A stretch of 35,895 nt of DNA, taken from the NCBI GenBank assembly GCA_944392435.1, contig CALXWQ010000001.1, positions 1-35,895 on the forward strand, given 5' to 3'. The notes below the pieces were generated by a model that did no database searches, was not told the DNA's origin, and saw only the letters and a list, made by a program, of their open reading frames with translations. Below, one piece after another: positions 16,345-21,430 of the stretch; the first letter of the stretch is position 1, and every line of letters begins with the position of its first letter. The translations under genes were made by a program, and so were the position numbers. The DNA comes from an uncultured Clostridia bacterium (GTDB lineage Bacteria; Bacillota; Clostridia; TANB77; CAG-508).

Positions 16345-18573
16345 TTACTTGTACTCCACCACCACTTTTGTTCCTTCATAAATTTCAATTCCACTAACAG
16401 GAACTTGAACTGTAACAGTCTTATCCGCTACATTCTCCTCTGTTTCTTCATAGCTTATTTCAAGTCCTACATCCTCCAATATTTTCTTTGCCTCACTAAC
16501 CGTTAAACCCGTTACATTTGGAACTTCTACTTCTTCTTTTATATCATCTTCTGTTAGATTATCTTTTTGAACTTCTAAATATGGAAGAACTTCTCCCAAT
16601 ACTTGTGAGCCTATTGGTGCTGCAACACCTCCTCCTTGGTGTCCTCCTTCTCCTGTTGGATTATACAATGTTATTAGTACTACTACTTGTGGGTCAGATA
16701 CTGGTGCTACTCCTACAAATGAAGTTACGTATTTCCCTGTATTTACTCCATCTTCTGAAGTTCCTGTTTTTCCTCCTATTGAATATCCTTGTACTCTAGC
16801 ATTTTTTCCTGTTCCTTCAGCAACAACTGTCCCCATCATGCTAAGTACATCTTCTGCAGTTTTTTGTGATATTACTCCTTCTGTCTCTTCTATTGGTATA
16901 TCTGTAATTTCTCCAGTCACACTATTTATGATTTGTTTTACAATGCGTGGTTTTACATATGTTCCTTTGTTCGCAATTGTACTTACAGCTGTTATCATTT
17001 GTATTGGTGTTATTTCAAATCTCTGTCCAAATGATATAGTCGCAAGTTCTACCGGTCCCACTTTATCTTCCTTTAAGAAAATACTTCCTGCTTCTCCTGG
17101 AAGATCAATCCCCGTTCTTTTTAATAATCCAAACTTTTCAAGATAATCATAATACTTGCTTACTCCAATTTCTTGACCTAATCCTATAAAAACAGGATTA
17201 CATGAATTCATAAGAGCCTGCCTTAAACTTTCTGAACCATGTGGGTTATAGTATCTCCAACAACTTATACGTACTCCTGCTACTGTTATTCCTCCTGTAC
17301 AGCAAAATTCACCTTGTTTATCTGTTGTAGTTATTCCTTCCTCTAGTGCTGCTGATGCAGTAATCAATTTGAATGTAGAGCCTGGCTCATATGTATCTGC
17401 AACAGCTTTATTTCTCCAAACTTTTTGCATCTCTGCAACTTGTTCAGTTTCCGATAAGTTATCCCAACTTTCTCGTAACTCTTCTATAGTAGTCTCATAT
17501 GGCGTATTCAAGTTATAATCTGGATATCCAGCCATTGCCAAAATATCTCCAGTTTTTGGGTTCATAACAATTATGTTTCCCCCATCTGTACATTTATTGT
17601 CAATACATGCCTCTTTCAGGTATTTTTCAGCTATTCCCTGTATTGTCGCATCAATACTTAAAACTAAATCATTGCCATCTACTGCGGAAGTGTAACTTTC
17701 TCCTTCATTCTCTATTTCGCCTCCATTTGCATCTGTGACCTTAGTAATTCTACCCTTTTCTCCTTGCAATTCATCTTCATAAATTGCTTCTATTCCATCT
17801 AATCCCTGATTGTCGGAGCCACAAAACCCTATTACCTGAGATGCTAAACTATTATATGGATAATATCTTTTCGTATCTTCATCTATATTTATTCCAGTTT
17901 CTATATTGTTAGCCTCCATCCAAACTCTAAGCTCATCAGTTTTTTCTTTTTCTACTTTTCTAGCTATATTTTCAATAGATGTTTTTTTGTTTACCTTTTT
18001 TAATACAGTCTCATAGTCTAAGTCAAATATATTGCTAAGTGCTTCTGCCACCTTTTCTTTATTTTCTTTAGAGATATTAGTTGGATTTACAGTTACTGTA
18101 TTTACAGTACTACTCACTGCCAAAATAGTTTTTCCTGTAGCATCATATATAGTTCCCCTTCTTGGATTTACTGCTCTTTCCAAACTCTGTTGCTCATAAG
18201 CCATCCTCTTTAATTCATCACCCATTACAAATTGTATCCAAGCAATTCTTCCAATAAATACAGTAAATATTAAACAAACTGCAACTATTGCCACTTTAAA
18301 TCTTTTTCTTCTACTAATCTCGCTATATTTTTCTTCTGCTTTTACCTTATCTTCTTTTATCTGTTTTCTATACTTCTTATTTTGTTTTTTTTCAAATTTC
18401 TTTTTCAATCTTTCTACATTCTCTATCTTTTCAGCTTTTTCTTTTTTTATATTCATTATTTCTTTTCTATCAAATCTTGGTATTATCTTTTTTCTCTCTT
18501 TCTCTCTATAAAATCCTCTTTTGGTTTTTCTTTTGTTCCCCTTTCTTTTTCCTGTATTCATTCTTAATCTCAT
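16345..18573 (-). CDS. Class B penicillin-binding protein (PBP2B/SpoVD type) with one PASTA domain and a long Lys-rich cytoplasmic tail
   Basis: Transpeptidase motifs STFK (EPGSTFKLITA), SCN (MNSCNP) and KTGT, plus C-terminal PASTA (VPNVTGLTVSEAKKILEDVGL). About 90 K/R/E-rich residues precede the TM helix. ATG 18561 is the alternative start. Confidence 0.92.
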   Translation of the reverse strand: MRLRMNTGKRKGNKRKTKRGFYREKERKKIIPRFDRKEIMNIKKEKAEKIENVERLKKKFEKKQNKKYRKQIKEDKVKAEEKYSEISRRKRFKVAIVAVCLIFTVFIGRIAWIQFVMGDELKRMAYEQQSLERAVNPRRGTIYDATGKTILAVSSTVNTVTVNPTNISKENKEKVAEALSNIFDLDYETVLKKVNKKTSIENIARKVEKEKTDELRVWMEANNIETGINIDEDTKRYYPYNSLASQVIGFCGSDNQGLDGIEAIYEDELQGEKGRITKVTDANGGEIENEGESYTSAVDGNDLVLSIDATIQGIAEKYLKEACIDNKCTDGGNIIVMNPKTGDILAMAGYPDYNLNTPYETTIEELRESWDNLSETEQVAEMQKVWRNKAVADTYEPGSTFKLITASAALEEGITTTDKQGEFCCTGGITVAGVRISCWRYYNPHGSESLRQALMNSCNPVFIGLGQEIGVSKYYDYLEKFGLLKRTGIDLPGEAGSIFLKEDKVGPVELATISFGQRFEITPIQMITAVSTIANKGTYVKPRIVKQIINSVTGEITDIPIEETEGVISQKTAEDVLSMMGTVVAEGTGKNARVQGYSIGGKTGTSEDGVNTGKYVTSFVGVAPVSDPQVVVLITLYNPTGEGGHQGGGVAAPIGSQVLGEVLPYLEVQKDNLTEDDIKEEVEVPNVTGLTVSEAKKILEDVGLEISYEETEENVADKTVTVQVPVSGIEIYEGTKVVVEYK

Positions 18574-19285: not shown

Positions 19286-20234
19286 TTATCCATTGTTTTT
19301 CTTTTCTATTCTTTCAAAAATTCTTAATTTTGCACTTTTGCTTCTGCTATTTTCTTCTTGCTCTTCTTTGCTTGGGAGTATTGGTTTTCTAGTTATTATC
19401 TTTCCATAAGATTTATAATTGCATACACAATATGGCAAATCTTTTGGACATGTACACTTTCCTTGTGCTTCAATAAATGCTTCTTTAACTGCTCTATCTT
19501 CTAACGAATGAAAAGTAATAACTGCAAGTCTGCCATTTTCTTTTAGGCACTCTATAGAGTTTAAAATTGTATTATATAATGGCTCCAATTCATTATTTAC
19601 TTCTATTCGGATTGCTTGAAAGGTTCTTTTTGCAGGATGTCCATTATTTTGTTTTGACTTTGGTATTGAATTTCTTATAATATCTACCAATTCTTCAGTA
19701 GTTTCTATTCGCTTTTTTTGTCTTTCTTTGCAAATATTTTTTGCAATAATCCTTGAAAATTTTTCTTCCCCATATTTGTAAATTATATTTGATAATTCTT
19801 CTTCTGTATATTCATTAATTACATCTTCTGCTGTAAGTTCTTGGGTTTTATCCATTCTCATATCTAATTTTGCATTTTCCATATAGCTAAACCCTCTAGT
19901 TTTTTCATCTAACTGATATGAAGAAACTCCTAAATCGAGTAAAATCCCATCTACTTTGTCTATTCCAATATTCTCTAGTATTCTATTTATATCATCATGG
20001 TTTCCATGAATGTATTTTACGTTTTTATATTTTTCTAATCTATGTTTTGCTGCTAATAATGCCTCTTCATCTCTGTCTATTCCTATAAGTAATCCTCTAT
20101 CAGACAATCTTTTAACTATTTCTTCACTATGACCTGCTCCTCCGCATTGTTCCATCTACATATATTCCGTCTGTTTTTATGTTCAATCCTTCTATACATT
20201 CATTTAATAAAACGCTCTTATGTTTGAATTCCAA
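19286..20234 (-). pseudogene. rsmH: 16S rRNA (cytosine1402-N4)-methyltransferase RsmH, interrupted by a 1-nt frameshift near the SAM-binding motif
   Basis: TTG 20234 (GAGGTG 6 nt upstream) opens (M)[28 protein letters not shown], then runs MRRSRS-stop (TAG 20129-20127). The track ORF 19286..20155 starts in the +1 frame at ..[14 protein letters not shown]. Removing one nt within 20143-20147 restores VDGT(C/M)GGAGHS. Confidence 0.8.
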
Positions 20235-20390
20235 TTGTTACACCTCATAGTACAAATTTTTATGATAGCATAAGCAGTTGGCATAAAAATATACCAACTG
20301 TATGCATGTCTTCAATTACTTATATTTCAGCAATTTTATCATATGTATGTTAACATTCCTTTGTTTTTATATTTCCTTTTCTTTAGATAA

Positions 20391-20750
20391 TCTTATCTTT
20401 TTTCTTCTGTGCATTATTATTTTTTCTTTTGTAAATGTCTATGTATAAACAATAAACATTTTATCTTTAGAAATTCAAAAATCTTTTGTTTTATTGTTTT
20501 ATTAGTGCTTTTGTTTTAATATATATTTAAATTTATCTTTTGTATTAATTTAAAATTTTTTCTTTAGATTATTAAAATTAGCTTGTCTTTTGTATTTTCA
20601 ACTCATTTTACTTAGCTTGTCTTTTGTTAAAATTTTTATCAATTTTTATCTTTTGTTCACATAATTATCTTTTGTTTTACTTTGTACCATTTTCTTTTGT
20701 TATCAAATGAGGATTAAAATCTTTTGTGCTTTTATTATTTTTATCTTTAG
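20391..20750 (-). repeat. Array of short direct repeats (minus strand ACAAAAGA / CTAAAGA) in the mraZ-rsmH spacer
   Basis: CTTTTGT on the + strand starts at 20426, 20483, 20508, 20537, 20587, 20621, 20650, 20669, 20694 and 20721. CTTTAG starts at 20391, 20465, 20572 and 20745. A 16-nt subrepeat TTAGCTTGTCTTTTGT occurs at 20578-20593 and 20612-20627. Confidence 0.75.
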
Positions 20751-20772
20751 TTTTTATATAAACTTTTTAAAG

Positions 20773-21204
20773 TTATATACCTAACATAGTCATATTTTCT
20801 GCTATTTCATCTGCCGAAATATTTTCTTCACTATTGTATTCTTTCCATTTGTCTTTGTTCCAAATTTCTATTCTAGTACCTACACCTATTATTGCAACTT
20901 CTTTTTCAAGATGTGCATATTCTCTTAGGTTACCTGTTAATAGAAATCTACCTTGTTTGTCCAATTCGCATTCGATTGCTCCTGATAAAAACAATCTCAC
21001 GAAATCTCTTGCGTTTTTGTTTGTAAGTGGAAGTGATTTTAATTTTTCTTGAAAATTATTCCATTCATTTTGAGAGAAACCAAATAATGAACCATCTAAT
21101 CCTTTTGTTACTATGAACTTTTCACCTATGTCTTCTCTAAGCTTTGCTGGCATTATAAGTCTTCCTTTTGCATCTAGAGAATGTTCATATTCACCAATTA
21201 GCAC
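20773..21204 (-). CDS. mraZ: Transcriptional regulator MraZ
   Basis: (M)[22 protein letters not shown] and a second DKQGRFLL repeat (the duplicated MraZ/SpoVT-AbrB fold signature). GTG start 21204 with AGAGGTGA 6 nt upstream. Confidence 0.93.
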
Positions 21205-21231
21205 TTTGTTTCACCTCTCTAACATTTTATA

Positions 21232-21293
21232 CCACTTTTTACCACTTCTCTCCACTTCACTTAAATTTTAATACAAGTATTTATAAATTGCAA
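21232..21293 (-). promoter_or_regulatory. Pmra promoter with three MraZ boxes
   Basis: The minus strand reads TTGCAA (21293-21288), a 17-nt spacer, TAAAAT (21270-21265), then GTGAAGTGGAGAGAAGTGGTAAAAAGTGGT. These are three AAGTGG repeats at an exact 10-bp period (+ strand CCACTT at 21252, 21242, 21232). Confidence 0.65.
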
Positions 21294-21387
21294 GTGTTTT
21301 TTGAAAATTTTTCAAAAAATTTTTTTCAAAATGCTTGTGCCTCTATGGTTTGCGAACATTGGTTTTGTATTGTAAACATAATAAGAG

Positions 21388-21430
21388 CAGAATAATGCTT
21401 GCTTTTACAGTATTCTAAACATTATTCTGC
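21388..21430 (-). terminator. Terminator downstream of fic
   Basis: GCAGAATAATG / CATTATTCTGC 11-bp stem (21388-21398 / 21420-21430). On the minus strand it is followed by TCTTATTATGTTT. Confidence 0.5.

Follow-up and report, generated by a model that had tools for sequence, protein, structure and literature searches.

An array of short repeated words between mraZ and rsmH in Clostridia and its possible role as an RNA control element

What occupies the gap between mraZ and rsmH at the head of the dcw gene cluster, which serves division and the cell wall, in an uncultured bacterium of the class Clostridia? In this paper we address this question for a window of 35,895 nucleotides, which is the whole 35.9-kb contig C1 of a 1.1-Mb genome in 99 contigs (69.6% complete, 29% GC). 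The relatives of this source genome are uncultured gut Clostridia, including Clostridium sp. CAG:571. The cluster lies on the minus strand in the order mraZ, spacer, rsmH, ftsL, a class B penicillin-binding protein (PBP) with a PASTA domain, a Mur ligase, mraY, ftsW/spoVE and murG. The first-pass annotation of this DNA had described a spacer free of open reading frames (ORFs), and the 538-nt spacer (20235-20772) indeed contains no sense-strand ORF of at least 30 aa. It carries copies of a short word, mostly in the form ACAAAAGA. Our results show that this array is real and far above chance. Throughout the class the same motif is kept, on the same strand and in the same genomic neighbourhood, and the array is found in transcribed regions and associated with hairpins or terminators. 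The array is most likely an undescribed RNA control element.

The first-pass annotation had counted ten copies of ACAAAAGA and four of CTAAAGA in the spacer. The four CTAAAGA copies were found again, but only nine copies of ACAAAAGA are exact, the supposed tenth being the degenerate ACAAAAGC. Other parts of that description hold: all copies have a single orientation, with none on the other strand of the spacer, the gaps between exact copies are irregular (19-57 nt), and the 16-mer ACAAAAGACAAGCTAA occurs twice, 34 nt apart. Over the whole array the start-to-start spacing is 18-54 nt. In 5000 dinucleotide-preserving shuffles of the spacer, ACAAAAGA occurred 0.16 times on average (maximum 3) against nine observed copies and C-N-AAAGA 0.42 times (maximum 4) against 13; the earlier rough estimate for the 7-mer had been well under one chance copy. 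The density of ACAAAAGA in the genome is 0.093 per kb per strand, and in the 1.1 Mb there is no other cluster and no other 600-nt stretch with more than two exact copies. One further cluster on contig C87, with three copies of the looser AC-N-AAAGA, sits within coding sequence and was set aside as chance. Other AT-rich spacers had been proposed by the first-pass annotation for comparison. In this genome they carry no clusters of the motif, and the enrichment is therefore not an effect of composition.

The junction between mraZ and rsmH in relatives had also been proposed for comparison, and spacer and motif are kept in every relative examined. Within the genus the region was matched in all 24 genomes, and the complete genome of the same genus (G024) has a 462-nt array. 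In 90 relatives' loci with MraZ 76-98% identical, the spacer measures 195-780 nt except in L091 (16 nt). L091 apart, these spacers hold 1-12 exact copies of ACAAAAGA and up to 19 of C-N-AAAGA, and no antisense C-N-AAAGA was found in the 90 loci. CAAAAGA occurs 526 times in 80 distinct spacers, a 30-fold excess over the 17.5 expected from a first-order Markov model, and is present in all 80. The 871 AAAGA sites of these spacers give the box consensus A(83%)-C(84%)-(A 69%/T 18%)-A-A-A-G-A-(T 49%/A 39%)-A-A, in which 84% of all AAAGA have C at position -2 and position -1 is free to be A, T, C or G. In an alignment of 15 species the identity is 68% in motif columns and 47% between motifs, figures that are indicative, as the motif may help to anchor the alignment.

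The wider searches relied on a strict pattern, in which three exact copies had to lie 8-38 nt from one another; it under-counts arrays built of variant boxes. This pattern is found in 104 of 151 genomes and in 44 of the 50 genera of the family, with almost nothing for a reversed control. All 19 loci fetched from the family's other genera have the array at the mraZ-rsmH junction, in sense orientation. Four of the five families of the order show the strict pattern, and the fifth has three to five copies of CTAAAGA, CAAAAGA or CGAAAGA together with hairpins of its own. Close relatives can differ in having the array or not, for example in family f2, in which the spacer of G037 measures 32 nt.

Repeats of this kind raise the question whether we are looking at a functionless A-rich minisatellite that expands in tandem and is tolerated between genes. 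Local tandem amplification can indeed be seen, with periods of 16-17, 24 and 39 nt in G137, G449 and G280. However, among families whose MraZ proteins share only 27-60% identity the 8-mer, its strand and its operon neighbourhood stay the same, whereas the inter-box sequence does not. We therefore disfavour this explanation and think that there is hardly any chance of it being right. The earlier description of a selected multi-site recognition array, rather than slippage DNA or an array of MraZ, 0A or DnaA boxes, agrees with our results.

Beyond the order, 401 Clostridia genomes were sampled. The strict pattern is present in 43 of them, and 31 matching places outside the order were fetched. At 19 of these places the array lies between rsmH and ftsL; in one of them, L124, there are 23 copies with a period close to 24 nt. 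Another five (L130-L132, L139, L144) are in the mraZ 5' untranslated region (UTR), 3' of the -10 element of the mra promoter (Pmra) and of the MraZ boxes. In L138 (G382, 2518-2600) four boxes are found in frame inside rsmH, as an insertion of about 46 aa that reads as T-K-D/E repeats, and two more lie between the rsmH stop and ftsL. The dcw-cluster arrays outside the order are all on the sense strand. A GC-rich U-tailed hairpin lies between the array and the next gene in L125, L126 and L141, and inside the order in L093, L119 and L120. The dcw array always sits inside the transcription unit, at one of three positions (mraZ 5' UTR, mraZ-rsmH or rsmH-ftsL). What is conserved is the word, the strand and the residence inside transcription units, and not the position relative to the promoter.

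The remaining six of the 31 places are L133, L134, L145, L146, L147 and L149, the last having flanks without a gene assignment. In L133 (G568), as in L155 (G752) and L156 (G741), which represent three species of one genus, a cyclic di-GMP (c-di-GMP-I) riboswitch aptamer and terminator are followed by 9-17 boxes, a second intrinsic terminator and spoIVA. No conserved ORF was found between the aptamer and spoIVA in these three genomes, and we suggest that the array is here a candidate riboswitch-gated non-coding array RNA. L147 (G390, 2073-2650) carries a 6S RNA gene (Rfam, 66.9 bits); three boxes and ACAGAAGA variants lie about 235 nt beyond it in the same orientation, and a terminator comes next. 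L146 (G628) has three boxes between a T-box leader and the ileS start. At the ylmE-sepF junction of L145 (G469, 2500-2560) three ACAAAAGA boxes bracket the Shine-Dalgarno (SD) sequence of sepF, the third overlapping the ATG. In L134 (G637, 2440-2700) the stretch between rluD and pyrR contains five boxes. They begin some 12 nt past a promoter match, TTGATT-17-TGATAATAT, and lie 5' of the pyrR promoter and leader; the gene order ylyA-lspA-rluD-pyrR is that of Bacillus subtilis.

These locations bear on the possibility that the array acts as DNA. A DNA-binding protein (SpoIIID, MraZ or another) might coat the repeats and block or activate transcription into rsmH-ftsL, as in the iteron or operator array that the first-pass annotation had in mind. 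Direct repeats with a defined core of 8-11 bp are typical of monomer-binding regulators, promoter-like elements are present at the 3' end of the spacer, and one array lies upstream of spoIVA. Yet arrays also sit 3' of promoters, riboswitch aptamers and stable-RNA genes, and it is hard to see what an operator would do there. Every fetched array is on the sense strand of its flanking genes. The spacing of the boxes has no 10-10.5-nt (helical) periodicity, which also rules out DNA bending or binding to the same face. In the relatives the start-to-start spacing has a floor of about 14 nt and a median of 24 nt, and this minimum suggests a footprint. The MraZ boxes differ in motif and have a 10-nt period: in the canonical mra promoter region of the window (21232-21293) a TTGCAA-17-TAAAAT match is followed by three AAGTGG MraZ-type boxes (21232-21257) at this period. 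The MraZ-binding Pmra repeats are of the GTGG type with a 10-bp period, whereas the array is made of another word, lies 3' of mraZ and lacks a 10-10.5 periodicity. Iterons are regular and found by a rep gene or origin, unlike the irregular spacing (18-57 nt) of an array flanked by mraZ and rsmH. With no helical periodicity, and all copies on the transcribed strand inside transcription units, the DNA-level framing does not hold up well, and we judge such an operator or roadblock improbable.

The first-pass annotation had also suggested a link to SpoIIID. The RRACAA of the box resembles the SpoIIID consensus, and in B. subtilis spoVD, which belongs to the dcw cluster, is repressed by SpoIIID. 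Both points speak for a DNA operator. The consensus of SpoIIID is WWRRACAR-Y or GGACAAG. RRACAA is common to both, but the box has its conserved G two bases further on and an A in place of the final Y, and only two copies read GACAAGC. SpoIIID is encoded in the source genome. Among the 43 array-bearing genomes, nine have no SpoIIID (PF12116) match, including G076 (100% complete) and G389 (99%), so that 79% are positive compared with a background of 75% (298/399). Two of the nine, G659 and G586, which come from a family with rsmH-ftsL arrays, have no Spo0A match either. As SpoIIID is unmatched at about the background rate and Spo0A is unmatched in two genomes, the array is not a sporulation-specific SpoIIID device, and the proposed link is not supported. 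A separate observation concerns the spoIIID gene itself. It matches in two halves (profile positions 1-41 and 34-81), which in G024 are 12 kb apart (C1:419249-419371 and 431225-431368) and in the source genome lie at two contig ends (C45:2-109 and C87:2-208). The split matches suggest an intervening element inside the gene.

The predicted folds of the transcript point to RNA. In the spacer of the window the predicted unpaired probability is 0.72 for motif bases and 0.55 between motifs, and over 40 spacers the corresponding values are 0.74 for boxes and 0.58 between boxes, with the same direction in all 40. The array lies between two hairpins (Table 1). Hairpin 1 is found in 96 distinct relatives' sequences with a mean of -5.6 kcal/mol, and its sense form is more stable than the antisense form in 68 cases versus 27; other families have different small hairpins at this position. 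In hairpin 2 the inner stem GTTGG/CCAAC is invariant among 44 aligned relatives, with loops of 4-14 nt. Both arms of the outer stem (GCAUA/UAUGC) vary, giving GCACA/UGUGC, ACAUA/UAUGU or ACACAA/UUGUGU. Its mean identity across 15 species is 91%. The sense form is the more stable one in 54 of 77 distinct sequences and the antisense form in 22 (mean difference 2.1 kcal/mol). In these predicted folds such a bias is characteristic of G-U pairing in the transcribed strand. A riboswitch governs only what is transcribed after it. This point, the absence of helical phasing, the predicted unpaired state of the boxes and the sense bias of the hairpin jointly favour an element that works at the RNA level.

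Several other roles for hairpin 2, and a long-range pairing, were considered. It is present as a single copy in the genome, which rules out a mobile repeat. A palindromic operator for a dimer is unlikely given the loop of 4-14 nt and the G-U pairs that favour sense RNA. Pairing of the conserved AAUCCUCAUUUG with the rsmH SD (AUGAGG) over a longer range was ruled out because relatives with CCCAUUUG keep the same SD. When tested as an intrinsic terminator, hairpin 2 of the window has no U run (its tail is UAUCAUAAAAAUUUG) and is therefore no canonical terminator, and the sense strand of the spacer showed no terminator-like site. Unrelated GC-rich hairpins, often U-tailed, take its place in other lineages, and the equivalent hairpin carries a U run in L093, L119, L120, L125 and L126.

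Table 1. Features of the mraZ-rsmH region, in window coordinates and in the order of transcription.
Feature	Position	Strand	Basis	Remarks
mraZ	20773-21204	minus	ORF and Pfam PF02381 MraZ, E 7.1e-41	Gene 5' of the module
Hairpin 1, GUAUAUAA-CUUUAAAAAG-UUUAUAUA	20755-20780	minus	Minimum free energy fold	Weak AU-rich stem-loop over the mraZ stop codon
Motif array	20380-20751	minus		13 sense copies of N-C-(A/T)-AAAGA: 9 ACAAAAGA, 1 ACTAAAGA, 3 TCTAAAGA
Degenerate copy ACAAAAGC	20507-20514	minus		Within the array
Genus-conserved block AAUUUCUAAAGAUAAAAUGUUUAUUGUUUAUACAUAGAC	20437-20475	minus		Inside the array; near-identical AATTCTCAAAAGATAAAATGTTGATTGTTTATACATA in L003-L012; locally paired in the fold
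Degenerate copy ACAGAAGA	20403-20410	minus		Within the array
Degenerate copy ACAAAGGA	20357-20364	minus		After the array
Promoter-like TTGAAG-16-TATATT	20288-20315	minus	9 of 12 matches	TG-extended; overlaps 5' arm and loop of hairpin 2
Hairpin 2, GCAUA-CAGUUGGUAU-loop-AUGCCAACUG-CU-UAUGC	20268-20305	minus	Predicted fold	-20 kcal/mol; before the rsmH SD
Second promoter-like element TGCTATCAT	20262-20270	minus	Sequence inspection	Extended -10 type; directly 3' of hairpin 2
rsmH ribosome-binding site GAGGTG	20241-20246	minus	Sequence inspection	
rsmH	19286-20234	minus	Pfam MraW methylase	Gene 3' of the module; TTG start 20232-20234

The explanation that we prefer, with a probability of roughly 45%, is that the array is a multivalent single-stranded RNA docking array for a putative RNA-binding protein, which together with the 3' hairpin gates continuation, stability or translation into rsmH-ftsL-pbp. 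The module would be a cis-acting RNA in the mra (dcw) transcript, composed of a weak hairpin, single-stranded A-C-(A/T)-AAAGA boxes, a strong hairpin and the rsmH ribosome-binding site. The boxes would dock one sequence-specific single-strand RNA-binding protein at many sites. The protein load on the array and the 3' hairpin would then set the share of the Pmra transcript that continues, or is stable or translatable, into rsmH-ftsL-pbp. In some Clostridia a separate riboswitch-gated non-coding array RNA might titrate the same protein as a decoy. The action as RNA, the reading by a protein and the regulatory outcome are all things that we infer.

Several observations weigh against this explanation. 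Transcription of the spacer is deduced from the gene order and from the absence of a terminator, no terminator-like site being found on the sense strand between mraZ and the array. Our statistics overstate the evidence, since they treat related sequences as if they were independent, and an array that grows by tandem duplication will likewise have all its boxes on one strand. Outside the boxes the A/(A+T) ratio is 0.586, which is ordinary compared with 0.557 +/- 0.059 in other co-directional spacers, and for this reason we dropped the argument that the spacer is an A-rich unstructured RNA. The conservation of the 3' end is open to another reading. The candidate promoter TTGAAG-16-TATATT of the first-pass annotation does exist as a sequence match (20315-20288). 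Its -10 lies within the conserved hairpin arm (TGGTATATT), where TGGTA is invariant, and its -35 and the rest of the -10 vary among relatives. At the position of TGCTATCAT relatives mostly have TGCTATAAT, TGCTACAAT or TGCTATTAA. The invariant TGGTA arm and the TGCTATAAT-like element could be promoters, in which case part of the conservation would be at the DNA level.

A further point against the docking array is that its reader is a hypothetical protein. Every array genome tested has KhpA, KhpB, Rho and RNase Y, but these proteins are near-universal, and their presence therefore neither supports nor excludes them and does not discriminate between candidates. KhpA/B are an attractive, if speculative, guess, as they reportedly affect division and PBP2b dependence in streptococci. 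A study of KhpB in Clostridioides difficile makes no mention of the motif, mraZ or ftsL. Hfq (PF17209) was found neither in the source genome (G000) nor in the complete genome of the same genus (G024). The same is true for CsrA (PF02599), which was found in three larger Clostridia and in the controls.

The main rival to the docking array is that it forms an entry cassette for RNase Y or a similar endonuclease. The boxes would then be redundant cleavage sites. Hairpin 1 would shield the mraZ fragment at its 3' end and hairpin 2 the rsmH-ftsL-pbp fragment at its 5' end, so that the two halves of the operon would differ in stability. The layout of hairpin, array and hairpin fits this idea, as does the freedom of the copy number to vary. 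RNase Y is present in G024, and arrays elsewhere adjoin RNAs that are processed or turned over (6S RNA, T-box leader, riboswitch leaders). In Staphylococcus aureus RNase Y prefers to cut 3' of a G in an A/U-rich region, and nearby structure is thought to add specificity (PMC4608709). Boxes with a single G in an A/U-rich context that is predicted to be unpaired would be compatible with this preference. The sites at which RNase Y matures operons, cggR-gapA in B. subtilis and saePQRS in S. aureus (PMC4608709, PMC5449607), are likewise intercistronic, lie in A/U-rich single strand with a G next to a structure and give the operon halves different fates. Those sites, however, are single and have no strong consensus beyond the G, whereas here a defined box occurs 4-23 times. 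The strongly conserved A-C five to six bases 5' of the G is absent from the published preference. It is also hard to explain an ORF-free, riboswitch-gated array with a terminator of its own as cleavage sites only. We regard a processing cassette as a credible but rather unlikely explanation.

Another possibility is that the array is a sponge for a base-pairing small RNA (sRNA), in which the boxes would pair with the UCUUUUGU seed of a hypothetical sRNA or other RNA and titrate this partner. Its boxes are multivalent, sense and predicted to be single-stranded, and a precedent exists in Rhodobacter, where the dcw leader interacts with sRNAs (PMC8266604). But the partner RNA is hypothetical, and Hfq was not found in the genus. 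With its free position -1, the box is a better match for a protein than for an uninterrupted duplex. We also know of no bacterial sponge with 10-20 sites. Such a sponge seems very unlikely to us.

The docking array can be compared with several known RNA systems. CsrB/RsmZ, which act on CsrA, and CrcZ, which acts on Hfq/Crc, likewise carry many copies of a short motif in a non-coding RNA, in numbers that vary between species, and one Clostridia genus has a candidate for a separate terminated array RNA. In contrast to the GGA in hairpin loops of CsrB/RsmZ, the box here is AC(A/T)AAAGA and predicted to be unpaired, with GGA in only one degenerate copy. Neither CsrA nor Hfq was found in the genus, and the array is here presumably part of an mRNA. 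In the trp leader (TRAP) and the hut leader (HutP) of B. subtilis, repeated short RNA words lie 5' of a hairpin or terminator and one oligomeric protein decides on read-through. Those words are triplets 2-4 nt apart and fixed in number, while the words of the array are 8-11 nt long, 14-57 nt apart and present in 1-12 exact copies per spacer. EutX and Rli55 are riboswitch-controlled RNAs that act as protein sponges, with a B12 riboswitch and ANTAR sites. They resemble the loci in G568, G741 and G752, where an aptamer and terminator lie directly 5' of an ORF-free array RNA with its own terminator, but the riboswitch class and the binding element are different, and the arrangement is absent from the window. 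By analogy, we would file the array as a repeat-word RNA platform, which is like the CsrB/CrcZ sponges and the TRAP/HutP leaders in architecture and lacks their defining features.

The nearest functional precedent at the same operon is UpsM. In Rhodobacteraceae this extended dcw 5' leader is a structured sRNA that acts with Hfq, RNase E and the sRNA StsR (PMC5089854, PMC8266604). In both cases a long non-coding RNA at the head of dcw ends in a hairpin or terminator that passes part of the transcripts and tunes division genes, although for the array this would follow from our preferred explanation. Some Clostridia arrays are found at exactly the place of UpsM, the mraZ 5' UTR. There is no sequence relation, however; the array consists of repeats, Hfq was not found, and in the window it lies between mraZ and rsmH. 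The mraW RNA motif of Actinobacteria (Rfam RF01746) is also a conserved non-coding element 5' of mraW (rsmH), but it is structured and from another phylum, and it gave no match here even at E up to 10. A search of the whole window against Rfam at the gathering score returned no match, and a search of 20000-21400 at E up to 10 only chance-level snoRNA and miRNA matches. We found no paper that describes repeats between mraZ and rsmH, only a preprint on B. subtilis MraZ being returned, and searches with the 8-mer gave primers and unrelated matches only.

The locus has further features that deserve mention. Inside the array the block AATTTCTAAAGATAAAATGTTTATTGTTTATACATAGAC (20437-20475) is nearly invariant across the genus, while the inter-box sequence around it is not. 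The product of rsmH methylates C1402, a base of the ribosomal P site. In the window this gene is interrupted by a single extra C that follows codon 30 (at about 20144, region 20127-20155) and precedes the GGAGHS glycines. The Pfam MraW methylase profile continues across the break, with positions 1-29 in a 35-aa ORF and 30-309 in a 289-aa ORF. The same extra C is found at the same place in 24 of 99 distinct relatives' loci, and the downstream frame stays conserved. Its flanking codons differ among these relatives (ATG, CTT, ATT, TTG or ATA, then C, then GGA, GGT or GGG). In the window the 0-frame codon at the extra C is CGG, the rarest arginine codon in the long ORFs of the genome (0.21 per 1000), and the next codon is AGG. 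Judged from these sequences, the extra C looks like a +1 frameshift at a hungry codon, one that is conserved and possibly programmed. The class B PBP encoded next to ftsL, on its 3' side, has an N-terminal tail of about 100 aa, extremely rich in lysine and arginine, ahead of its membrane segment (18270-18573).

We suggest that the ACAAAAGA-box arrays might form a Clostridia-wide, undescribed class of multivalent RNA elements. A single global regulator that binds RNA would read them and act on cell-division and envelope genes (dcw head, sepF). It would itself be controlled by decoy arrays, for example the c-di-GMP-riboswitch-gated one located next to spoIVA and the one behind 6S RNA. This broader proposal is tentative, and we consider it doubtful. 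If it is true, the decoy arrays would link second-messenger and growth-phase signals to cell division. The gating by a riboswitch suggests how c-di-GMP might reach division or sporulation genes. The array sequence provides a concrete bait for seeking the reader. An unstructured element would be expected to be missed by RNA searches based on covariation, which suggests that repeat-word arrays are under-sampled among bacterial RNA signals. Little is known about the control of dcw after transcription start in Gram-positive anaerobes. The short word described here heads this operon in Clostridia of several families and dozens of genera, and it appears to mark an uncatalogued control point.

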